A stretch of 64,000 nucleotides of DNA from Alphaproteobacteria bacterium (lineage in GTDB: Bacteria; Pseudomonadota; Alphaproteobacteria; JAAXGF01). This document shows positions 30,884-41,058 of this stretch, in pieces (within the stretch, counting starts at the first letter, position 1; the number at the start of each line of letters is the position of its first letter). Both the position numbers and the translations under genes were made by a program. The notes under the pieces are model-generated. The model was not told where the DNA came from and did no database searches. It was given only the letters and a program-made list of their open reading frames with translations. The stretch lies in NCBI GenBank assembly GCA_963555825.3, contig CAUVXB020000002.1:1760001-1824000 (forward strand). The letters are read 5' to 3'.

Positions 30884-32086
30884 CTAATCGGCCTGCTCGA
30901 GCGAGGCGGCAGCCGGCGCGCGGCGCTCGGGCGGCAGGAACAGGGCGGCGACCGCGACGACCAGCGCCATGGTGCCGAGGATCGTGAACAGCAGCGCGAA
31001 ATCGCCGGTGCGCGCGTGGATCAGCGCGACCATCGGTATGGCGAGCGCGGCGACGCCGAGCGCGATGACGAACTTGGCGCCGTAGATCGTCGCGCGCCAG
31101 GCGACCGGCGTGTGGCGCGCCACCACGACCTCGCTCACCGGCAGGGCGCCGACGTTGAGGAAGACGAAGACAATGGCGATCAACATCAACGGCAGGTCGA
31201 AGAGATCGGCGGCGAGGAACAGGAGCGGCGCCTGCAACAAAAAGATGATCGAGAACAGCGGCTTCAGCGGATATCGGTCGACCAGATGGCCGACGGCGAT
31301 CTGCGCAAAGCCGGCCACCGCGTAGACGATCGAGACCATGAGGCCGATCCCCAGCGTACCCGTTACCAGCCCGGTGAGGCGGATGTCGAACACCTTGGGC
31401 AGGCCGATCGTCATCGACTGGAAGATCATCCCGCCACACAGCGAGGTCACCGCGATGACGCACATCATTCGGATCGTGTCGGCGCGCGCCGGTTCGGCCT
31501 GCGCGACGCGGTCTTCGGCCTGGGTCGCCATAGCGCCTGAGCGCGCGAATAGCGCGAAGGCGACGCCGGTGGCGACGGCGACGGCGCCGGGCAGGATGAA
31601 GGCGGCGCGCCAACTGACCAGGTCGGTCAGCGCGCCGGCGATCAGCGCCGCGGCGGCAACGCCGAGATTGCCGAACAGGCCGTTGACGCCGATCGCCTTG
31701 CCGCGCCGCGCCGCGTGGCGCACGACCCAGGCGGTGCCAACCGGATGGTAGATCGAGGCGAACACGCCGATCAACGTCAGCCCGACGCCGATGCCCAAGG
31801 GCGATTGGGCGAGGCCGGTGAGGATCGACGCGCCGCCGGTGCCGATGAAGAACACCGTCAGCATGCCCATGGCCGACCAGCGGTCGCTCAGCCAGCCGGC
31901 CGGCAAGGCGCACACCCCGAAGGCGATGAAGCCGGGCAGCGAGTACGGCAAGAGCTCGCCGTACGGCAGGTCGAAGACGCCCTCGAGCGCCACCACCACG
32001 GTCGCGTACAGCAGCATGAAGATGTGCGAATAGGCGTGTCCGACGCAGGCGAATGCGAGCGACAGACCCGACGATTTCTCCGACAT
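30884..32086 (-). CDS. MFS transporter
   Basis: Multiple TM segments, AGWLSDRWS, ASIYHPVG. Confidence 0.88.
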   Translation of the reverse strand: MSEKSSGLSLAFACVGHAYSHIFMLLYATVVVALEGVFDLPYGELLPYSLPGFIAFGVCALPAGWLSDRWSAMGMLTVFFIGTGGASILTGLAQSPLGIGVGLTLIGVFASIYHPVGTAWVVRHAARRGKAIGVNGLFGNLGVAAAALIAGALTDLVSWRAAFILPGAVAVATGVAFALFARSGAMATQAEDRVAQAEPARADTIRMMCVIAVTSLCGGMIFQSMTIGLPKVFDIRLTGLVTGTLGIGLMVSIVYAVAGFAQIAVGHLVDRYPLKPLFSIIFLLQAPLLFLAADLFDLPLMLIAIVFVFLNVGALPVSEVVVARHTPVAWRATIYGAKFVIALGVAALAIPMVALIHARTGDFALLFTILGTMALVVAVAALFLPPERRAPAAASLEQAD

Positions 32087-32158
32087 GTTTGAGCCTCGGC
32101 GCCCAGGAATAACGACTAACGGTTTAGAGCGTTATGGCCGGCGCGGCAAACGTCGCGA

Positions 32159-32496
32159 TCAGTCGTCCCGCGCCGCTTCGGCCGGCCCGAGCGCGTGTTG
32201 CAGGGCGCCGAGGTGCCGCTCGAACAAGCGCCAGCGTTCGACCGACGAGGAGTAGATCGGGCGCCGCACCTGGGCCGCGCTGGCGGTCAGCACGGGCCGC
32301 TCGGTCTTGTCGAAGTCGAGACAGCGGTCGTCCCAGTCGAGACCGCAGTGCGCGACCAGGCGGCGCGCCGCGCCCTCGAGGTCGGCGACGACGTCCTCGT
32401 AACGCAGCTCGCAAATGCGCCCGGGCAACACCGCCCGCCAGTGGCCCATCATGCGCTCGTACAGCCGGTAGTAGAGGCCGAGCTCGGTGAGGTCGT
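32159..32496 (-). pseudogene. C-terminal part of TPR-sulfotransferase
   Basis: DLTELGLYY...MMGHW...YEDVV...TASAAQVRRPIY; continues the 39135-41058 frame. Confidence 0.9.
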
Positions 32497-32564
32497 GAGC
32501 TATAACCGAATCTTGACGGGGCGGTAAAAAGTCGATTCCTCATGAGAGTCGGCTGGATTATAAT

Positions 32565-34206
32565 CCGACATTCCCCAGATGATATCCAAATTCGCGGAAA
32601 TCGTACCACGGCCCCATCTCCAAGGGAACTCTGTTCCCATTGCAGCCATCCGATGACATGATTTTGGTAATCGGCCAGCGCGTGGAAGGCCATTTGGTCG
32701 TTTCTCTTGCCATCCAGACACACCTCTCGTGTCGCAATCTCCTTGCCGTCGATTCCCTCGGCCTACGCCGGAGCGGGTCTTCGTCGTAGATCATCAATCA
32801 GGCTCAAGATTTTCTGGAACAAGCTTCTGGTGACTGCAACCTCGGCCAATTGAAATGTGACGTACCGGCCATGGCTGACAACTTTCGCACCGATCTTGAC
32901 CAGCTTCTCCCTCAGCGTCGTCAGCGACCATTGCTCCACGGCATCGGGCAACGCCAGGGTACGCATGAAGTTGCCGAGGTTATAGGCGAGTGCATGCAGC
33001 TGGAGCCGGACGGCATTGTTGCGTAACGAACGGCATGACAGCCGCGTCCACTTGATGGCGTTCTTGCCTTCCTTGATCCATTGCTCGGCAGTGCCGCGCT
33101 GATTGTAGAACGCAACAACCCGCTCGGCAGGACGGCTCAGGTTGGTGACGATGAAGCCGACGCGGGGATACAGTTCCCCTGAGTGCCACTCCACCTTGGC
33201 GACGACCCGGCGGGGCTCCGTCCAGCTACCGGCCCGATAGCTGAAGTTCGCGTAATACCGACGAACTTCCTTCGGCGGCCGACCGACGGGGCGCTTGAGC
33301 AGGTGCGCGATGCTGTCGTGCAGCACCTTGTTGGCCGGAAGCCGGATGGCGTACTTGAAGCCTTCCGCTTCCAGAAACTCATAAACCTCGGGCGAGGCGA
33401 AGGCGGCGTCACCACGGAAATAACGCCGGAGTGTCTTGTTCCGGTATCGAGCGACCACCGGGTCCAACACATCGCGCCATTCATGGGCGCTGTGCACGTT
33501 GCCCGGACGCAGGGCGCAACGCTCCAGATCGCCGAACTGGTTGAACACGAACAGCGGGTGATAGCACGTGCAGCCGAAGTGACCGTTGTAGGCCGTGCCC
33601 TCCTGGTCACCGTAGGTCGGGCTGACGGAGCTGTCCATGTCGAGCACGATAATCTTCGGCGGCTTGCGCTCGTTAACCTGGTCGATCCAGATGCCCAAAA
33701 GGTCAGCGAGCGCGGCGAGGTTGTCATTGGTGGCGAGTAACTCCGTCTCGAACCGGCCCATCTGGCTGGTCGATGCGCCGCCGCGCTCGACAGCCCTGCC
33801 GCCGACGATCCACCGCATCGCAGGATCGCGCCCCAGCCGGTCGGCGTCGTTCACGTCCTCGTACCCGGCGAGACGACCATAGACGGATTGGCGAAGGAGA
33901 CCGATGATGCCGTGCCAACCGTTCTTGCCGGTCCGGCTGTCAGCAATAACGTCACCGGCCAGCGTGGTCAGGCCGAGGGCTTCGTCCAGTTCACGATAGG
34001 CGAGCAGACCAGCGTCTGACGTGATCCGCGAACCGTGGAACTCGAACTTCAGTCTTCGGTCGAAAAACGCCCGCAGAAGCCCCCGATCCGACTCACCCTC
34101 CAGGTTCCGCATTCGACCCACCCTCCGTCTGATCTAATCCACTGATTCTTATACAGGAATCAGACGGAAACCGCATCAGATGGATCGGTCACTTGGGGAA
34201 TGCGGG
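32565..34206 (-). mobile_element. IS1380-family element, 5-bp TSD ATAAT
   Basis: IRs CCGACATTCCCC / CCCGCATTCCCC; empty site visible in copy 2 at ~39066-39074. Confidence 0.9.
32763..34121 (-). CDS. IS1380 transposase
   Basis: ITSDAGLL, LDMDSS, RGDAAF, YNQRGTAEQWIKEGK. Confidence 0.93.
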   Translation of the reverse strand: MGRMRNLEGESDRGLLRAFFDRRLKFEFHGSRITSDAGLLAYRELDEALGLTTLAGDVIADSRTGKNGWHGIIGLLRQSVYGRLAGYEDVNDADRLGRDPAMRWIVGGRAVERGGASTSQMGRFETELLATNDNLAALADLLGIWIDQVNERKPPKIIVLDMDSSVSPTYGDQEGTAYNGHFGCTCYHPLFVFNQFGDLERCALRPGNVHSAHEWRDVLDPVVARYRNKTLRRYFRGDAAFASPEVYEFLEAEGFKYAIRLPANKVLHDSIAHLLKRPVGRPPKEVRRYYANFSYRAGSWTEPRRVVAKVEWHSGELYPRVGFIVTNLSRPAERVVAFYNQRGTAEQWIKEGKNAIKWTRLSCRSLRNNAVRLQLHALAYNLGNFMRTLALPDAVEQWSLTTLREKLVKIGAKVVSHGRYVTFQLAEVAVTRSLFQKILSLIDDLRRRPAPA

Positions 34207-34210
34207 ATAA

Positions 34211-35821
34211 TTGTGCATGTTTACTTTACGCGACCGACGGACTGGGGAATTGTTTGATCGCTGGTCCGATTTCGGGGACAAACGTCGGCGCCTGATGGAG
34301 CAATCCTGGGCCGGGGTTTTTCGGAACCATCTGCTTGTCGAACTTCCGGTTGACGATCTTTGCCGTCACCTTGATGAACGCATGGGCCGACCATCGAAGG
34401 ATCTACACGTTGTCATCGGGGTCTTGCTTTTGCAGCAGCTGCACGATCTGAGCGATGCAGAGACCGTCGAGGCCCTGGCCTTCAATATGGCGTGGCACTA
34501 TGCCTTGGACGTGCGCAGCGAAGCGGACAGCTATTTCTGTGAGAAAACCCTGCGCAACTATCGCCGTCTGTTTATCGAACAAGGTCTCGATGAATTGCTG
34601 TTCCGGTGTTTGACGGATCGGCTGGTGCAGGGGTTCTCTGTCGATACCAGCCACCAACGCATGGATTCGACGGCCCTTCGTTCGGCAATGCGGGCGCTGA
34701 CACGACTTGGTATCGTTGTTGAGAGCATCTCGAAGTTTGCCCGTGAGCTTGAGCGATATCATCCCGGTCTGCACGAGCAGATCAGCAAGGAGGTGATCCG
34801 CCGCTATGTCGATCGCGAGGGTAATGGCGCGTTCGCGAATACGGCGCCGAGTGTTTCAAAACGGCGCCTCGGCGAAGCGGGTCAGTATCTCCTAGCCCTG
34901 GTGCTGCAATTCCGTGACACGGCGGCGGCAAAGCTTTCCAGTTTTGCGATCCTGGAGAGGGTTCTGCGCGATCAGTTCGAGATCGTTGATGATGAGTATG
35001 GCGATCGTGACGCAACGCGCGCCGCGATTCGAGATCCAAAGGATGTGCCGTGCGATACCGTCGGCAATCCGGCCGACCCGGACGCGAGCTACAACGCGCA
35101 CAAGGGTCAAGGATACATGGCGCAGATCGTCGAAACCTATTGTGAAGATGTCAGTAACGAGGCGGTTGCCGCGACACCGGACCTCATCACCCACGTGGAG
35201 GTCCACAAGATGACGGTGCATGACGGCCATCGCTTAGCCGATGCGCTGGATGATCTGAGCGAGCGCGCGCTGACGCCGGCGGTGATGCTGGGTGATTCAC
35301 ATTACGGTTCCAGTGACAACATGGCTCTGACGCGCGAACAGAACATCAATCTCGTGGCGCCCGCACGACCGCCGAAAGGCGCCGTCTCGGGACGGTTGAC
35401 GTTGGAGGATTTCACTCTCAACGAAGAAGGCTTGGTCTTGCGCTGTCCCAATAACGTCGAACCGGTTTCAGCCTCGCTCGCCAAAGCCAAGCTGCAGGCC
35501 CGTTTCGACCTCTCCATCTGCCAAAAATGTCCCGATATACTGCGATGTCCCGTGCAGGCGGCCAAGCGTGACGGCCAATTTTCCCGCTTTCAATATACCC
35601 CGGCCAGGGCTGCCAACCAAAAGCGCCGGCTTTATGAACAAAGCGATGCCTTCCGCAACGTCTACAGATGGCGGGCCGGCATAGAAGCGACCATGTCGCG
35701 ATTAAAGTACCAGATGAACCTGGCTCACCTACGCATTCGCGGCATGCCGGCCATGCGCTACGTGGTCAATCTGCGTGCCCTCGGCCTCAATATCCGACGC
35801 TGCGCGGCAATCGCACCATAA
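34211..35821 (+). CDS. IS1182-like DDE transposase (536 aa)
   Basis: DUF772-like N-terminus, QRMDST, GDSHYG, Cys cluster, Y-2-R-3-E-6-K (YRWRAGIEATMSRLK). Confidence 0.85.
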   Translation: MCMFTLRDRRTGELFDRWSDFGDKRRRLMEQSWAGVFRNHLLVELPVDDLCRHLDERMGRPSKDLHVVIGVLLLQQLHDLSDAETVEALAFNMAWHYALDVRSEADSYFCEKTLRNYRRLFIEQGLDELLFRCLTDRLVQGFSVDTSHQRMDSTALRSAMRALTRLGIVVESISKFARELERYHPGLHEQISKEVIRRYVDREGNGAFANTAPSVSKRRLGEAGQYLLALVLQFRDTAAAKLSSFAILERVLRDQFEIVDDEYGDRDATRAAIRDPKDVPCDTVGNPADPDASYNAHKGQGYMAQIVETYCEDVSNEAVAATPDLITHVEVHKMTVHDGHRLADALDDLSERALTPAVMLGDSHYGSSDNMALTREQNINLVAPARPPKGAVSGRLTLEDFTLNEEGLVLRCPNNVEPVSASLAKAKLQARFDLSICQKCPDILRCPVQAAKRDGQFSRFQYTPARAANQKRRLYEQSDAFRNVYRWRAGIEATMSRLKYQMNLAHLRIRGMPAMRYVVNLRALGLNIRRCAAIAP

Positions 35822-36050
35822 AAAACGAAGCCAAGGAGAAGCCAAGGGTAGGTAATATCAGGTTTTATCCACCAGCAACGCGGAGACAGGCAAATATTCT
35901 TCACCGAACCGCAAAGACCTGTACAAGCACGCCATCGGCCAACAACTTTTTACCGCCCCGTCGAATCTTGTGTACGGCGTTGAAATGAAGGCGGCGTATC
36001 CTGGTGATTGTTGATGTCACCACTTGAGCTAAGCCAAGGAAGGATACGCC

Positions 36051-37295
36051 ATGAAAGAGAATACCGTTGTTGCTTTTCAAAACCCATCTGATTTTCAGAA
36101 AGATCCGTTGACGGAAGTCCTACAAGCTGGAGCTCGCGAGTTGTTGGCCCAAGCCGTTGAGGCCGAGGTCTCCGTGTTTTTGGGTAGCCATGCGGCGCTT
36201 GTTGACGCCGCCGGCCGCCGCCGGGTTGTCCGCAATGGATATCTGCCGGAACGCTTCATCCAGACCGGGATCGGCCCGGTGAGCGTGCGCCAACCCCGTG
36301 TGCGGGACCGGGGGGACGGCGCCATCCGCTTCACGTCGGCGATCCTGCCGCGCTATCTGCGCCGCGCCAAGAGCCTGGAAGACCTTTTGCCATGGCTGTA
36401 TCTGAAGGGCATTTCCACCGGCGACTTCGGGGAAGCCTTGGCGGCGCTCCTGGGGAGCTCCGCGCCGGGGCTTTCGGCCTCCACGATCACCCGGCTGAAA
36501 GAGGTCTGGGGGGTTGAGGCGGAGCGCTGGCAACGGCGCGACCTCACGGCCAAGCGCTACGTCTATTTCTGGGTGGACGGCATCTATTTCAGCGCCCGCA
36601 TGGAGGAAGAGAAGCAGTGCATCCTGGTGATCGTCGGGGCCACGGACAAGGGACAGAAGGAACTGATCGCCATCGCCGACGGCTATCGCGAAAGTGAGCA
36701 GTCCTGGCTCGAAGTTCTGCTCGATCTCAAGCGGCGCGGCCTTGAAATGGGTCCGCAACTGGCGCTCGGCGACGGCGCGCTCGGCTTCTGGAAGGCGCTC
36801 CGCCAAGTCTACCCAGGCGCCCGCGAGCAACGCTGCTGGGTTCACAAGACGGGCAACGTCTTGAACAAGCTGCCCAAGGGTCTGCAAAAGAAAGCCAAGG
36901 GGCGCCTGCAAGACATCTGGATGGCCGAAACCAGGAAGGATGCCGAGAGCGCCTTCGACTTCTTCCTGGAAGCCTACGGGCCGAAGTACGACAAGGCCGC
37001 GGCCTGCCTGGCCAAGGACCGCGACGTCCTGCTGACGTTCTACGACTTCCCCGCCGAGCACTGGAAGCATGTACGCACGACCAACCCCATCGAGAGCACG
37101 TTCGCCACGGTTCGTCTGCGCACCTACCGGACCAAGGGCTGCCTGTCGCGCAAGACGGCGATGGCCATGGTCTTCAAACTATGCCAGTGCGCTCAGAGAA
37201 AATGGAGAAAACTCGATGGATCGAACCATCTCGCCGAGATCATTCGCGGCGTCAAATTCGTAGATGGAGAACGCCAGGATCGCGCCGCCGCATGA
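36051..37295 (+). CDS. IS256 transposase
   Basis: RNGY, YLKGISTGD, WVDGI, GDGALG, QRCWVH, RTTNPIES. Confidence 0.95.
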   Translation: MKENTVVAFQNPSDFQKDPLTEVLQAGARELLAQAVEAEVSVFLGSHAALVDAAGRRRVVRNGYLPERFIQTGIGPVSVRQPRVRDRGDGAIRFTSAILPRYLRRAKSLEDLLPWLYLKGISTGDFGEALAALLGSSAPGLSASTITRLKEVWGVEAERWQRRDLTAKRYVYFWVDGIYFSARMEEEKQCILVIVGATDKGQKELIAIADGYRESEQSWLEVLLDLKRRGLEMGPQLALGDGALGFWKALRQVYPGAREQRCWVHKTGNVLNKLPKGLQKKAKGRLQDIWMAETRKDAESAFDFFLEAYGPKYDKAAACLAKDRDVLLTFYDFPAEHWKHVRTTNPIESTFATVRLRTYRTKGCLSRKTAMAMVFKLCQCAQRKWRKLDGSNHLAEIIRGVKFVDGERQDRAAA

Positions 37296-37316
37296 TCAGC
37301 CCATACACAACTTTTG

Positions 37317-39115
37317 ACGGGGCGGTAAAAAGTTGTTGGCCGATGGCGTGCTTGTACAGGTCTTTGCGGTTCGGTGAAGAATATTTGCCTGTCTCCGCGT
37401 TGCTGGTGGATAAAACCTGATATTACCTACCCTTGGCTTCTCCTTGGCTTCGTTTTTTATGGTGCGATTGCCGCGCAGCGTCGGATATTGAGGCCGAGGG
37501 CACGCAGATTGACCACGTAGCGCATGGCCGGCATGCCGCGAATGCGTAGGTGAGCCAGGTTCATCTGGTACTTTAATCGCGACATGGTCGCTTCTATGCC
37601 GGCCCGCCATCTGTAGACGTCGCGGAAGGCATCGCTTTGTTCATAAAGCCGGCGCTTTTGGTTGGCAGCCCTGGCCGGGGTATATTGAAAGCGGGAAAAT
37701 TGGCCGTCACGCTTGGCCGCCTGCACGGGACATCGCAGTATATCGGGACATTTTTGGCAGATGGAGAGGTCGAAACGGGCCTGCAGCTTGGCTTTGGCGA
37801 GCGAGGCTGAAACCGGTTCGACGTTATTGGGACAGCGCAAGACCAAGCCTTCTTCGTTGAGAGTGAAATCCTCCAACGTCAACCGTCCCGAGACGGCGCC
37901 TTTCGGCGGTCGTGCGGGCGCCACGAGATTGATGTTCTGTTCGCGCGTCAGAGCCATGTTGTCACTGGAACCGTAATGTGAATCACCCAGCATCACCGCC
38001 GGCGTCAGCGCGCGCTCGCTCAGATCATCCAGCGCATCGGCTAAGCGATGGCCGTCATGCACCGTCATCTTGTGGACCTCCACGTGGGTGATGAGGTCCG
38101 GTGTCGCGGCAACCGCCTCGTTACTGACATCTTCACAATAGGTTTCGACGATCTGCGCCATGTATCCTTGACCCTTGTGCGCGTTGTAGCTCGCGTCCGG
38201 GTCGGCCGGATTGCCGACGGTATCGCACGGCACATCCTTTGGATCTCGAATCGCGGCGCGCGTTGCGTCACGATCGCCATACTCATCATCAACGATCTCG
38301 AACTGATCGCGCAGAACCCTCTCCAGGATCGCAAAACTGAAAAGCTTTGCCGCCGCCGTGTCACGGAATTGCAGCACCAGGGCTAGGAGATACTGACCCG
38401 CTTCGCCGAGGCGCCGTTTTGAAACACTCGGCGCCGTATTCGCGAACGCGCCATTACCCTCGCGATCGACATAGCGGCGGATCACCTCCTTGCTGATCTG
38501 CTCGTGCAGACCGGGATGATATCGCTCAAGCTCACGGGCAAACTTCGAGATGCTCTCAACAACGATACCAAGTCGTGTCAGCGCCCGCATTGCCGAACGA
38601 AGGGCCGTCGAATCCATGCGTTGGTGGCTGGTATCGACAGAGAACCCCTGCACCAGCCGATCCGTCAAACACCGGAACAGCAATTCATCGAGACCTTGTT
38701 CGATAAACAGACGGCGATAGTTGCGCAGGGTTTTCTCACAGAAATAGCTGTCCGCTTCGCTGCGCACGTCCAAGGCATAGTGCCACGCCATATTGAAGGC
38801 CAGGGCCTCGACGGTCTCTGCATCGCTCAGATCGTGCAGCTGCTGCAAAAGCAAGACCCCGATGACAACGTGTAGATCCTTCGATGGTCGGCCCATGCGT
38901 TCATCAAGGTGACGGCAAAGATCGTCAACCGGAAGTTCGACAAGCAGATGGTTCCGAAAAACCCCGGCCCAGGATTGCTCCATCAGGCGCCGACGTTTGT
39001 CCCCGAAATCGGACCAGCGATCAAACAATTCCCCAGTCCGTCGGTCGCGTAAAGTAAACATGCACAATTATAATCCAGCCGACTCTCATGAGGAATCGAC
39101 TTTTTACCGCCCCGT
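37317..39115 (-). mobile_element. IS1182-like element copy 2 (in IS256 right IR)
   Basis: Same IRs; flanking duplication CAACTTTTG (37308-37316, 39116-39124). Confidence 0.9.
37457..39067 (-). CDS. IS1182-like DDE transposase, copy 2
   Basis: Same as 34211-35821 except S/F (KLSSF/KLFSF) and N/D (FRNV/FRDV). Confidence 0.85.
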   Translation of the reverse strand: MCMFTLRDRRTGELFDRWSDFGDKRRRLMEQSWAGVFRNHLLVELPVDDLCRHLDERMGRPSKDLHVVIGVLLLQQLHDLSDAETVEALAFNMAWHYALDVRSEADSYFCEKTLRNYRRLFIEQGLDELLFRCLTDRLVQGFSVDTSHQRMDSTALRSAMRALTRLGIVVESISKFARELERYHPGLHEQISKEVIRRYVDREGNGAFANTAPSVSKRRLGEAGQYLLALVLQFRDTAAAKLFSFAILERVLRDQFEIVDDEYGDRDATRAAIRDPKDVPCDTVGNPADPDASYNAHKGQGYMAQIVETYCEDVSNEAVAATPDLITHVEVHKMTVHDGHRLADALDDLSERALTPAVMLGDSHYGSSDNMALTREQNINLVAPARPPKGAVSGRLTLEDFTLNEEGLVLRCPNNVEPVSASLAKAKLQARFDLSICQKCPDILRCPVQAAKRDGQFSRFQYTPARAANQKRRLYEQSDAFRDVYRWRAGIEATMSRLKYQMNLAHLRIRGMPAMRYVVNLRALGLNIRRCAAIAP

Positions 39116-39134
39116 CAACTTTTGACAATAGCTC

Positions 39135-41058
39135 TGAGGTCGTAGGCGAAGGGCTGGCCCGAGGTGAACAGCGTCTTGTAACACGAGAAGCAGGTGTCCA
39201 TCGGATCGCGCCGACAGTGGATGATCCGCGCGGCCGGCAGCATGGCGTGGATCAGGCCGAGATGGCGATGGTTGAGCGGCATCTTGTCGGTGACCCGCGC
39301 GGCGTCAGGCGCCAGGGCGCGGAGCGCCGCGACATAGCTCTCGCCCAGCTCGCGCCACATCGCGCCATCGATCTCGGCGGCGCATTCGGGATAGCGGTGC
39401 GTCGACGACAGCCGGCGCGGCAGGCCATCGGCGAGGCGCATGATCTCGTCCAGCTCGCCACCGCCATGAACGGCGGGGTGGCTGGCCAGTATCTGCTCGA
39501 CCAGGGTGGTGCCCGAGCGCGGCATGCCGACGATGAAGACGGGCAGTTCGGCGCCGTCGCCGAGGCCGTCAGCGCGCGCGAGGAAGGCATCGTCGAAGCT
39601 TCGCGTGATGCGCTCGACGATGTCTGTTTCGTCGGCGATGTCGAAATCGATGGCGCCGCGCTTGAGCCGGTTGCCCCGCTCGATACAGTCGAACGCCGCG
39701 TCGTTGTCGCCGGTGTCTTCATGGGCCTTGCCGAGCGAGAACAGGAGCCGCGCCGCGTCGGCGTCGGTGAGCGACGGATCCGCGACGCGCGCCGTCAATG
39801 CGGCGATATCGTCGTCGCCCGGCTCGAAAGTCTTCACGGCGCTCATGTTGTGGTGTGCCTCGGCCAGGCCGGGATCGAACGCGAGCGCGCGGGCGTAGGC
39901 CGCGACGGCCTCGTCGAGCCGCCCCAGGTTGGCCAGCACCATGCCCAGGTTGTTGTGCGCCACGGCGAGTTCCGGCTGCAGCTCGAGCGCCTTGTGGCAC
40001 GCCGCGAGCGCCTCCTCCAGCGCGCCCTGGCCGGCCAGCGCGATGCCCAGGTTGTTGTAGGCCTCGGCGTAATCGGGCTTGATCTGGACGGCGCGGCGAT
40101 AGGCCGCCACCGCGTCGGCCTGGTTGCCGCGCGCTTCCAGTGCGGCGCCCAGGTTGAACTGCGCCTCGGCGAGGTCGGGCTCGAGCCTCAGCGCGCGGCG
40201 GTAGGCCGCCAACGCCTCGTCGAGTTCGCCCGAAAGTCGGAGCGCATTGCCCAGGGTGTTGTGCGCCTCGGCGCTGTTCGGATCGAGCGCGAGCGCCTGG
40301 CGGATTTCCGCGACCGCCCGGGCGGGCTCGCCGAGTTCGACCAACGTCGCGCCAAGGCGGCTCCGCCATTCGGCCGCGTCGGGGCGCAGCGCGAGCGCCT
40401 TGCGAAAGGCCGTCGCGGCCGCCTCGTGCGCGCCCTGCGCGTGGCGCGCCATGGCCAGGGTGGCCTGCGCCTCGGCATAGTCGGGCCGCAGCTCGAGTGC
40501 TCTCAAGCAGGCGACGGCCGCGTCGTCGGCACGGCCCGACGCCAGCTCGGCGCGGCCCAGGTTGTTGTGCGCCATGGCGTAGTCGGGCTCGAGCGCGACG
40601 GCGCGGCGGCAGGCGGCGGCGGCGTCTGCGGGCCTGCCGAGGTCGAGGAGCGTGACCCCCAGGTTGTTGTGCGCCGTGGCGAAGTTCGGGGCGGCGGCGA
40701 CGGCGTTTTGAAAAGCCGCCAGGGCCTCTTCGGCCGCGCCCCGTTCCTTGAGGATGTTGCCCAGGTTGTAGTGCGCCTCGGCGTCGTCGGGCGCCGCCGC
40801 GATGGCGCGCCGGATGAGGTCGACGGCCGCGGCGGCATCGCCCCTCTGGTAGCGGATGACGCCGAGCAGATGCAGGGCACCGGCCTGGTCGGGCTGGCGC
40901 GCCAGAACATCGGCGCAGAGCCGCGCGGCCTCGTCGAGCCGGCCGGCGCGCTGGTGGCCCAGCGCCGTCTTGAGCGCTTGATCCGCCGATGCCGCGCCAC
41001 CGCCCCGAGCGGGTTGTCGACCGGCCTTGCCTGACGCGCGTCGTTGCTTCCTGTTCAT
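39135..41058 (-). pseudogene. TPR-repeat sulfotransferase, N-terminal part
   Basis: MNRKQRRA, many AEAHNNLG TPRs, IVGMPRSGTTLVEQIL, DKMP. Confidence 0.92.

Follow-up and report, generated by a model that had tools for sequence, protein, structure and literature searches.

An IS256-family element at positions 32497-39134 of the analysed window (the whole stretch of 64,000 nucleotides) carries an IS1182-like copy in each of its terminal repeats, and the left of these copies is itself split by an IS1380-family element. This arrangement is likely a three-level nest, and the IS1182-like element likely one whose choice of target is sequence-specific and matches the ends of IS256 repeats. Target-specific insertion sequences are rare.

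Architecture of the nested locus

The outer element has IS256-type ends, starting with GAGCTAT at 32497 and finishing with ATAGCTC at 39134, and both its left and its right repeat are broken by IS1182-like copies at the identical repeat position. The two copies have 1771 nt in common at 100% identity and are inverted relative to each other (34207-35977 and 37301-39071). The features of the locus are as follows.

32488-32496, no strand: TGAGGTCGT, the left of the two 9-bp repeats made by the IS256 insertion in the host gene; from the sequence and the empty-site joint
32497-39134, + strand: IS256-family element "T1" with all nested DNA; from its ends, NCBIfam, Pfam and genome BLAST
32497-32514, 35970-37315 and 39124-39134: T1's own DNA, 1375 bp
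32497-32514, + strand: IS256 left repeat, outer 18 nt (GAGCTATAACC followed by GAATCTT)
32508-32514: left copy of the 7-bp duplication GAATCTT, repeat nt 12-18
32515-35962 (3448 bp; C2:1792515-1795962), + strand: left IS1182-like copy, composed of 1801 bp of IS1182-like DNA and the nested IS1380-family element
32560-32564 and 34207-34211: target duplication ATAAT of the IS1380-family element
32565-34206, - strand: IS1380-family element, 1642 bp; from NCBIfam, Pfam and comparison with the uninterrupted right copy
32763-34121, - strand: IS1380-family transposase ORF
34211-35821, + strand: left IS1182-like transposase ORF, 536 aa from TTG; Pfam DUF772, DDE_Tnp_1_6 and DDE_Tnp_1
35963-35969, no strand: right copy of GAATCTT, nt 12-18 of the IS256 left repeat
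36051-37295, + strand: IS256-family transposase ORF, 414 aa
37309-37315, no strand: inner 7-bp repeat AACTTTT, equivalent to nt 12-18 of the right IS256 repeat in + strand reading
37316-39116 (C2:1797316-1799116), - strand: right IS1182-like copy, uninterrupted, 1801 bp
37457-39067, - strand: right IS1182-like transposase ORF, directed into IS256
39117-39134, - strand: IS256 right repeat, outer 18 nt (AACTTTT followed by GACAATAGCTC on the + strand)
39135-39143, no strand: TGAGGTCGT again, the right of the two 9-bp repeats made by the IS256 insertion
39144-41058, - strand: upstream part of the split host gene, with TPR repeats and the beginning of a sulfotransferase domain; from Pfam matches to TPR families and to Sulfotransfer_3

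Read as reverse complement, the outer 18 nt of the right repeat are GAGCTATTGTC followed by AAAAGTT. The left IS1182-like copy is bounded by 18-nt perfect terminal repeats (32515-32532 and 35945-35962), and its transposase, which probably starts at the ATG at 34217, is directed into IS256. Re-reading of the ends and duplications thus gave the nested structure that the preliminary description had proposed, including the inward-pointing transposases, which is true of both copies at this locus. For the duplicated segment it had left a choice between nt 11-19 and nt 12-18 of the repeat. Only the latter holds (7 bp, with an element of 1801 bp ending in GACGGGG...CCCCGTC), since sites whose neighbouring bases are not C and G repeat 7 bp only (G000 C1:863122-866356; L041, L037, L042, and L045). 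The proposed independence of the two insertions is likewise borne out, because the 7-bp duplications are unlike, GAATCTT (32508-32514 and 35963-35969) on one side and AACTTTT (37309-37315 and 39117-39123) on the other, each matching its own repeat.

The Sulfotransfer_3 match in the upstream part of the host gene covers profile positions 1-149 of 216, with the rest of the gene to the left of 32496, and the frame is open over 751 aa once the insert is deleted in silico by script. The IS256-family element would have entered this TPR/sulfotransferase gene at the outset, generating the 9-bp duplication, and the IS1182-like element would have entered each terminal repeat in two independent events. 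The IS1380-family element, a third element that the preliminary description did not include, would have struck the left IS1182-like copy afterwards, its insertion point being a TATAAT just upstream of the transposase start of that copy.

The transposases and their families

The IS1182-like element has a length of 1801 bp, ends in GACGGGG...CCCCGTC with 18-bp perfect terminal repeats and contains one transposase gene. By far the best NCBIfam model for its product is IS1182 (NF033551; residues 42-533 on profile positions 31-487 of 488), with a score of 173.9 bits, below the cut-off of 270, and a runner-up at 62 bits. Three Pfam matches exceed their cut-offs: DUF772 (PF05598) reaches 47.4 bits, and for the C-terminal DDE domain PF13751 scores 50.7 and PF01609 35 bits. 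The name IS1182-like is therefore appropriate with respect to best model and domain make-up, but not with respect to the score that the family model asks for. Identity to annotated IS1182-family transposases is 27-28%, and the relatives of the enzyme carry only "transposase" or "hypothetical protein" as database names. The YREK signature noted earlier is present (Y485/R488/E492/K499), with all four residues invariant in 12 relatives, in keeping with the assignment, made from the sequence, to the DDE-type transposases with a Y-2-R-3-E-6-K motif. A structure model of the transposase (pLDDT 56) was too poor for use.

Similar to members of the IS1182 family (IS1272, ISMno10, ISMgi3), the element combines a single, probably DDE-type transposase containing DUF772, DDE_Tnp_1_6 and YREK with terminal inverted repeats. 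According to one report, IS1272 targets inverted-repeat or palindromic structures, and some IS1182-family members have palindromic targets (PMC5678879; Siguier et al. as cited therein). The core of the target described here, C-RANNNTY-G, is reminiscent of such a preference in being a weak palindrome. What sets the present element apart from that family is a duplication of constant length, 7 bp, an asymmetric motif spanning about 18 nt, and a target that lies at the end of another insertion sequence instead of in a generic hairpin.

Members of the IS256 family generate target duplications of 8-9 bp. In the IS256 host element, the terminal repeats are imperfect and about 26 nt long, the empty site confirms the duplication of 9 bp, and the transposase matches NF033543 (320 bits, cut-off 150) and PF00872 (Transposase_mut; 199 bits, 1.3e-58). 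The element is otherwise ordinary, being notable solely for the fact that its first 18 nt correspond to the landing motif. The IS1380 family is characterized by short duplications of 4-5 bp and by ends starting with CC. In line with this, the element in the left copy has the ends CCGACATTCCCC and CCCGCATTCCCC, with 5-bp duplications in the copies listed, and its transposase matches NF033539 (391 bits, cut-off 180) and DDE_Tnp_1_4 (8e-135). Seven full copies of it are found in the genome.

Target choice in the genome and among relatives

Throughout the genome, IS256-type repeats adjoin the IS1182-like element at one fixed position, in 34 of 35 cases at its left end and in 36 of 37 at its right end. 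Of the 34 copies that could be paired, 33 lie in IS256 repeats at exactly this position, and identical 7-bp duplications accompany 28 of the 34. The single copy outside IS256 occupies a look-alike site, GAACTAT-N4-GATCATC, with 6/7 matches in register. This arrangement at nt 12-18 of IS256 repeats is far beyond chance. The other copies are thus not mostly in unrelated sequence, and the site specificity claimed in the preliminary description is confirmed, as also seen from its retention in relatives. The motif GAGCTAT-N4-RANNNTY has 115 sites in the 6.04-Mb genome, 113 of them IS256 tips and 38 occupied; per repeat type, the occupancy is 14/43, 13/38, 10/15, 0/16, and 1/1. A genome BLAST with the IS256 core returned 78 segments, and most of those of T1 type matched at 100% identity along all 1353 nt.

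The claimed orientation specificity, on the other hand, is refuted, as 18 insertions point inward and 20 outward (binomial p 0.87). Four IS256 copies are doubly occupied; unambiguous orientations among them are out/in, in/in and one outward right-hand copy, with a SNP standing in the way of a direct call for two left-hand copies. Independence of the insertions genome-wide is supported in three ways. Three repeat types are occupied in both orientations, the four doubly occupied copies compare with 4.3 expected from independent hits, and among 24 full copies the SNP haplotype does not track the insertion context, the last argument being weakened by gene conversion among about 40 near-identical copies. 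In the second IS256 variant, the right repeat (GAGCTATGTCC-GAAAGTT) is occupied in 0 of 16 cases and the left repeat in 10 of 15 (Fisher p 6.8e-5). This right repeat matches the motif perfectly and the sequence rules derived do not account for its avoidance, the sole lead being a T at repeat nt 9 that is rare among occupied tips (3/53).

In one metagenome-assembled genome (G001), a 99%-identical element is present in no fewer than 21 copies, and a search of this genome for an IS256 transposase or PF00872 gave no match. There, 10 of 42 flanks have at least 5/7 matches to GAGCTAT at exactly -18 to -12 (background 0.93%; binomial p 5e-12), although some of these look-alike sites (e.g., L042 and L037) may have arisen by decay of IS256 repeats and not by chance. 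The 12 other registers between -6 and +6 yielded 3 flanks at +1 and 0 everywhere else. Information per position exceeded the simulated 99.9th percentile at -18, -14, -13, -12, -8, -7, -6, -2, and -1. As these copies stand in a genome that yielded no IS256-family transposase, the element is not an obligate hyperparasite of IS256. Immobilisation or hijacking of IS256, as put forward in the preliminary description, is a possible outcome of the insertions.

Relatives were sampled from 80 metagenome loci, with a tree of 77 rows. Metagenome contigs may be chimeric across repeats, which makes statements on both flanks less safe than those on single junctions. The IS256-repeat signature was found at 23/25 loci with at least 70% identity, 17/30 with 50-69% and 0/23 below 50%. 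Similarly, the tip motif was in register in 28/46, 17/45, and 0/41 flanks of these classes, and shifted registers gave 0-3 flanks as opposed to 45 in register. In the tree, 34 of 35 IS256-repeat rows fall inside one clade of 52 (support 96), and all 23 rows in lineages outside this clade are without the motif. The neighbouring IS256 transposases of the relatives are only 55-74% identical to the one described here, which indicates different host elements. In sister lineages below 50% identity, the elements sit between inverted-identical flanks.

Taken as a mechanism, the target would be picked by DNA sequence, with a preference for a stretch of roughly 18-19 bp (G-N3-Y-A-T-N3-C and then R-A-N3-T-Y) and a cut across RANNNTY with a 7-bp stagger. 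Integration in either orientation would follow from the likeness of the element's two ends. The first 18 repeat nt in one group of IS256-family elements (GAGCTAT-N4-RAANNTT) fit this motif almost perfectly, and since IS256 repeats supply nearly all motif sites here, nearly every copy would end up at repeat nt 12-18. We infer that the choice is made by the element's own DDE transposase, because the element is without other genes and one metagenome-assembled genome with the element showed no IS256 transposase.

Alternative explanations and implications

It could be argued that the target is found through IS256 transposase or a transposition complex bound at the ends, which would attract the IS1182-like transposase, and not through DNA alone. 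The asymmetry of the second variant, left repeat used and right repeat avoided in spite of its perfect motif, does suggest a factor beyond the 18-nt sequence. This explanation nevertheless appears improbable, given the spread of the element in the genome in which neither IS256 transposase nor PF00872 was found, with tip-motif sites in exact register there, the divergence among the targeted IS256 transposases elsewhere, and a BLASTP comparison of the two transposases that detected no similarity (best E 6). Alternatively, a few insertions might have been multiplied by transposition of occupied IS256 elements or of tip-bounded composites, a hijacking that would inflate the apparent specificity. 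T1 cores are all 100% identical, which implies a recent IS256 burst, and the outer junction keeps repeat nt 1-19 because the element starts with G. Moreover, elements between both outer tips do exist, in 3 of 34 cases in the genome and on a complete Microvirga plasmid, where a 9-bp duplication surrounds the whole unit. We nevertheless consider such multiplication very improbable: at least seven repeat-type/orientation classes occur in the genome, haplotypes differ within a class and are common to several classes, the same nucleotide was struck in dozens of unrelated IS256 variants from other samples, and look-alike sites outside IS256 are also occupied. With a 9-bp duplication in only one of five both-tip cases checked, recombination between copies fits better than mobilisation.

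Random insertion followed by selection, with only copies inside other insertion sequences persisting as harmless, would be in keeping with a genome rich in insertion sequences in which nesting is common, yet it is hardly credible. It accounts neither for every copy being at the same repeat nucleotide nor for the absence of copies elsewhere in IS256, in other abundant elements and in intergenic DNA, nor for the exact-register motif in the IS256-free genome. The symmetric structure might also be a misjoin of repeated elements, as nearly the whole region is made up of elements repeated between 7 and about 40 times and is covered by short contigs. The check for misassembly suggested in the preliminary description makes this a negligible concern. 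Contigs of run X15, which may be the source sample, bridge unique host DNA, IS256 tip and IS1182-like end on both sides (31300-32523 and 39106-39535), and runs X1, X3, and X18 contain the exact empty site (joint 32487->39135, 9 shared letters) and an intact host-gene allele. The same junction type recurs at 33 further copies, and the genome consists of two contigs.

To our knowledge, the known insertions into another element's terminal repeat are those of RNA-guided DEDD enzymes. Elements of the IS110/IS1111 type have a DEDD recombinase and a long non-coding region whose guide is complementary to both target and donor; they insert in one orientation and are not known to duplicate the target, which applies to IS4321/IS5075 as well. 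IS4321/IS5075 (IS1111 group) are reported to use a DEDD enzyme guided by an element-encoded RNA (PMC11187229; PMC11208160). The present element resembles them in hitting a fixed position within a terminal inverted repeat that belongs to another mobile element, there Tn21-family transposons, but differs in its DDE/YREK enzyme, the use of both orientations and the duplication of 7 bp. On its two sides, the non-coding DNA measures roughly 55 and 141 nt, and comparison of element and target for guide-like complementarity gave only a 9-mer inside the right terminal repeat (0.25 expected by chance). These features do not fit RNA-guided targeting of the IS110/IS1111 type. IS30 has a DDE transposase that favours an extended consensus with partial palindromic symmetry, and insertions beside terminal repeats are among its products; its targets are its own repeats or a chromosomal hot spot, and family and duplication are different. 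The reading of a long target motif by protein would be shared with IS30, whereas the preferred site here belongs to a foreign family, IS256. No published description of an IS1182-like element targeting IS256 ends was found in the literature.

Beyond the preferred reading of sequence-specific target choice, it is conceivable, at somewhat less than even chances, that the old and widespread DDE clade (52 tree rows, with identities as low as about 50%) is specialised as a parasite of the IS256 family. If so, the transposase alone would read an 18-19-bp address equal to the IS256 terminus and integrate at nt 12-18, and the split repeat would act as a natural brake on IS256 bursts at a landing site harmless to the host. 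The deeper relatives would use palindromic repeats, so that evolution would have shifted the address from structure-like targets to the end of a foreign element.

An ordinary-looking DDE transposase here shows a precision comparable to that of RNA-guided DEDD enzymes without sign of a guide. How such an enzyme reads a long address is open to study, with four natural repeat variants as substrates, one of them never used. For annotation, the nests break IS256 repeats and may mislead programs that call IS boundaries. IS256 ends may have offered a harmless landing site that allowed the rise to about 40 copies, and splitting of a repeat would presumably disable that IS256 end. With one third of the IS256 ends in this genome interrupted (38 of 113 tips), the finding is a case of mobile elements regulating each other; if the interrupted ends are dead, this would limit the spread of IS256 and shape the genome instability typical of IS-rich symbiont genomes.

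A nest of insertion sequences in a host gene

Repeat finding together with direct reading of the window revealed three insertion sequences nested in one another, located as follows relative to the gene they interrupt:

32497-39134: outer element, IS256 family; left end GAGCTATAACCGAATCTTGTGTACGG at 32497; right end, reverse-complemented, GAGCTATTGTCAAAAGTTGTGTATGG, ending at 39134
36051-37295: IS256-family transposase, Mutator-type, 414 aa (PF00872, 1.3e-58; NCBIfam IS256, 320 bits, cut-off 150)
32565-34206: third element, IS1380 family, inside the left IS1182-like copy (NCBIfam, 391 bits vs 180)
39144-41058, plus a part left of 32496: interrupted host gene, with 102-bp periodic repeats at 39836-40835 corresponding to TPR units

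The 9-bp direct repeat TGAGGTCGT borders the IS256-family element, which splits a gene whose product combines TPR repeats with a sulfotransferase domain; the frame of this gene is open over 751 aa once the insert is deleted in silico. An IS1182-like copy is placed after nt 18 of each IS256 terminal repeat, and the two copies are mutually inverted and 100% identical across 1771 nt. As in the preliminary description, the two IS256 repeats are occupied and both transposase genes point inward, into the IS256 body. The duplicated heptamers, GAATCTT and AACTTTT, differ and each equals its local repeat, so that the two copies result from separate insertions, as had been proposed. The IS1380-family element lies in a TATAAT that precedes the start of the left IS1182-like transposase by a few bases. 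Seven full copies of it are present in the genome, with 5-bp duplications of the TTAAN/ATAAT type; three of them have the same left flank and may therefore lie in another repeated sequence.

Since misassembly could have produced such a symmetric structure, contigs were inspected from public sequencing runs that contain the stretch, some of them carrying a sponge-metagenome label. Contigs of one run (X15), possibly the sample from which the genome derives, bridge host gene, IS256 tip (the outer part of the terminal repeat) and element end on both sides, with no single contig from these runs crossing the full 6.6-kb nest. Three further runs (X1, X3, X18) contain the exact empty site with a 9-bp overlap, their contigs representing an uninterrupted allele of the host gene. 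Taken together, bridging contigs and empty sites imply that the junctions are real and that the IS256 insertion is recent and polymorphic.

Insertion into IS256 repeats across the genome

A census of the whole genome from which the window derives (G000; two contigs, C1 and C2, 6.04 Mb) showed that IS256-type repeats adjoin 34 of 35 left ends and 36 of 37 right ends of the IS1182-like element, always at the same position, which upholds the site specificity proposed from the window locus. Only 115 sites of the form GAGCTAT-N4-RANNNTY exist across the genome, and 113 of these are IS256 tips. The sole copy outside IS256 has the target GAACTAT-N4-GATCATC, with the register unchanged. Occupancy of the different repeat types, namely those of the window's IS256-family element (T1, 1375 bp) and of a second variant (T2), is listed below.

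Table. Occupancy of IS256 tips by the IS1182-like element in G000. Inward and outward: transposase gene pointing into or away from the IS256 body.
Repeat	Tip	Tips	Intact	Inward	Outward
T1 left	GAGCTATAACCGAATCTTG	38	25	7	6
T1 right	GAGCTATTGTCAAAAGTTG	43	29	6	8
T2 left (second variant, 76% identical)	GAGCTATAGCTGAATCTTG	15	5	4	6
T2 right	GAGCTATGTCCGAAAGTTG	16	16	0	0
Single further variant	not listed	1	0	1	0

The preliminary description had also assumed orientation-specific insertion. The census refutes this: with 18 copies pointing inward and 20 outward (binomial p 0.87), orientation is free, and both orientations are found in three repeat types. Among 39 T1 cores, both repeats were intact in 17 and both occupied in four, with differing combinations of orientation. 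As 4.3 double occupancies are expected under independent hits, the symmetric structure in the window is what double occupancy by chance would give. The 24 full-length IS1182-like copies carry 27 variable sites, with haplotypes common across contexts and mixed within a single context; this pattern is possibly blurred by gene conversion, and other genomes therefore provide the stronger argument for independence.

Both ends could be paired for 34 copies, of which 28 have identical 7-bp duplications and 24 measure exactly 1801 bp. Recombination between copies accounts for the unequal flanks of the remaining six, three of which have an outer IS256 tip on each side. With regard to the limits of the element, a duplication of repeat nt 11-19 (9 bp) had initially been preferred, with nt 12-18 as the alternative. 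The heptamer in IS256 repeats is always preceded by C and trailed by G, so that both lengths are indistinguishable there. Sites with other neighbouring bases decide in favour of the alternative: at C1:863122-866356, outside IS256, GATCATC alone is repeated, and at L041, L037, L042, L045, and L032, loci carrying relatives of the element, just seven bases are repeated. The 9-bp version was rejected accordingly; the duplicated stretch comprises nt 12-18 of the IS256 repeat, and the element is GACGGGG...CCCCGTC, 1801 bp long and ending in perfect terminal repeats of 18 nt.

Some copies have themselves been invaded. Three of them (C1:525862-529096, C1:863122-866356, and C2:3360197-3363431) each measure 3235 bp owing to a further element of ~1.4 kb at three different positions, and BLAST pieces at each of these insert sites overlap by 16-18 nt, a hint of a long duplication. 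The reverse nest, an IS256 T1 copy (1375 bp plus 9) within an IS1182-like copy, occurs at C2:2831924-2835108.

The T2 right repeat, GAGCTATGTCC-GAAAGTT, fits the motif perfectly and is occupied in none of 16 cases (for example in the regions of C1:1814480 and C2:3269920), compared to 10 of 15 for T2 left (Fisher p 6.8e-5). T at nt 9 of the repeat is rare, being present in 3 of 53 distinct occupied tips, and represents a candidate explanation and the only lead found; context or IS256 proteins may contribute to the contrast between the two sides. A 35-copy repeat beginning with GAGCTATTGGCC was considered as an untargeted IS256 end and dismissed as a poor control, as neither an IS256-like gene nor a partner end is found nearby.

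Relatives in other genomes and metagenomes

A scan of species-representative genomes yielded 53 loci. Among them are relatives of 67-88% identity as well as transposases of 98-99% identity from metagenome-assembled genomes whose labels name several alphaproteobacterial lineages. Many of these loci adjoin IS256-type repeats, and the neighbouring IS256 transposases are just 55-74% identical to the one of the window. At L031-L061 and L084 (including genome G005), an IS1182-like transposase of 98-99% identity and an IS256 T1 transposase of 99% identity occur in differently labelled alphaproteobacterial families, with a fragment also present in a Thermodesulfobacteriota-labelled genome. Such near-identical copies across families point to recent horizontal spread inside a common habitat. 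In a class-wide sample, only 2 of 401 genomes, G000 being one of them, contained the IS1182-like transposase, which is too small a number for judging co-occurrence with IS256.

When metagenome contigs were scanned with a 12-row alignment, 80 loci of 39-86% identity were retained, and for these the 18 nt outside each recognisable end were scored for GAGCTAT at -18 to -12.

Table. Tip motif and IS256 signature next to relatives, by identity to the window's transposase. Flanks: at least 5/7 matches to GAGCTAT in register; per-locus counts also draw on an ad hoc signature covering the inner part of the IS256 repeat.
Identity	Flanks with motif in register	Loci with IS256 signature
≥70%	28/46	23/25
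50-69%	17/45	17/30
<50%	0/41	0/23

These 45 matches in register compare with 0-3 at shifted registers. Of the 35 motif-positive rows in a FastTree phylogeny of 77 transposases, 34 belong to a single 52-row clade (support 96), and each of the 23 rows in lineages beyond this clade either is motif-negative or lacks a flank; L080 and L035 form very long branches in this tree, the longest open frame used there probably not being the transposase.

Relatives below 50% identity (L156, L158, L161, L162, L166, L167, on metagenome contigs) do not use IS256 ends. Several of them have inverted-copy flanks or adjacent GGGTGCCA-type repeats, the inverted identity amounting to 22/23 nt at L156 and 60/60 nt at L158, which fits duplicated palindromic targets. 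At L069 and L070, in a Rhizobiaceae-labelled genome, a 73% relative has made clean insertions outside IS256 with a GAGC-like motif to the left and right of the heptamer, and judging from these two sites the full target may be a degenerate dyad of ~29 bp. Tandem copies are found at L034, L066, L081, L108, L132, and L134 with only the 7-bp duplicated heptamer as spacer, meaning that a second copy is able to land in the core regenerated beside the first. The abutted ends of such tandem copies resemble reactive junctions of other insertion sequences.

Whether IS256 proteins are needed for targeting can be addressed in G001, a genome in which searches for an IS256 transposase and for PF00872 gave no match. 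It contains at least 21 copies of a 99%-identical IS1182-like element and only four exact GAGCTAT-N9-TTG sites, which is chance level. Nevertheless, 10 of 42 flanks had at least 5/7 GAGCTAT matches in the exact register against a background of 0.93% (binomial p 5e-12), compared to three at +1 and none at the others of the 12 further registers from -6 to +6. Significant information per position was found at -18 (G), -14 (Y), -13 (A), -12 (T), -8 (C), -7 (R), -6 (A), -2 (T), and -1 (Y). The presence of the motif in register in this IS256-free genome implies recognition of the address in the DNA itself, with no requirement for an IS256 protein; some of the sites may have arisen by decay of IS256 repeats, and this conclusion would hold for them as well.

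Reading of the target and relation to known elements

The IS1182-like element encodes a single protein, with DUF772 and DDE domains and a Y-2-R-3-E-6-K signature. An RNA guide was considered as the source of specificity and dropped: comparison of the element with three repeat variants for guide-like complementarity and shared words gave nothing beyond one 9-mer, located inside the right terminal repeat and expected 0.25 times by chance. Capture of a domain from the IS256 transposase was likewise rejected, as BLASTP between the two transposases found no similarity (best E 6). Given one encoded protein, no guide complementarity and no similarity to the IS256 transposase, we infer recognition of the target motif by the transposase itself. 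A sequence search for a solved structural relative gave no match at E up to 1, and an AlphaFold2 model built on the 12-row alignment was of too low quality for use (mean pLDDT 56.1, pTM 0.35). Two resemblances bear on possible mimicry of the element's own ends: its right repeat has at nt 13-21 the same nine bases as the T1 right repeat at nt 12-20 (window 37316-37336 and 39096-39116), and its tip GACGGGG resembles or equals nt 22-28 of some IS256 repeats (L034, L063). These resemblances are absent from other targeted repeats and do not co-vary, so that mimicry was kept as a weak lead; they may be due to chance or hint at a target read as a pseudo-end by the transposase. With motif reading by the transposase, the enzyme would make 7-bp staggered cuts across RANNNTY, and the near-identical element ends would permit either orientation.

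After insertion, the outer junction retains nt 1-19 of the IS256 repeat and the inner junction nt 11 onward, an interruption that may immobilise IS256. Immobilisation or hijacking of IS256, as suggested in the preliminary description, is unproven. On a complete plasmid of Microvirga sp. VF16 (L096; NZ_CP069355.1, 414896-416715), a 71% relative has an outer IS256 tip at either end, and a 9-bp duplication surrounds the whole tip-element-tip unit. Outer 18-nt IS256 tips on both sides with the IS256 core gone were also observed at L062, L067, L075, L080, L105, L117-L122, and L129; of five units checked, the Microvirga one alone had a 9-bp duplication. The simplest explanation for such units is deletion or rearrangement between copies, likely a deletion between two direct copies, and mobilisation by an IS256 transposase is possible.

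The transposase is IS1182-like, yet it scores 173.9 bits against an NCBI cut-off of 270 and is 27-28% identical to annotated IS1182-family members; its relatives are named only "transposase" or "hypothetical protein" in databases. IS1272 of the IS1182 family is reported to target inverted-repeat structures, and some family members to target palindromes (PMC5678879), a habit matched here by the inverted-identical flanks of the sister lineages below 50% identity. IS4321/IS5075 also insert into the terminal repeat of another element, using an RNA-guided DEDD enzyme (PMC11187229, PMC11208160), in contrast to the DDE enzyme found here. A literature search returned no description of an IS1182-like or DDE element aimed at IS256 repeats, although a curator's note in ISfinder or TnCentral may exist. 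The initial observation is confirmed and reaches far beyond the window locus. The element falls among the target-specific insertion sequences, a known kind.
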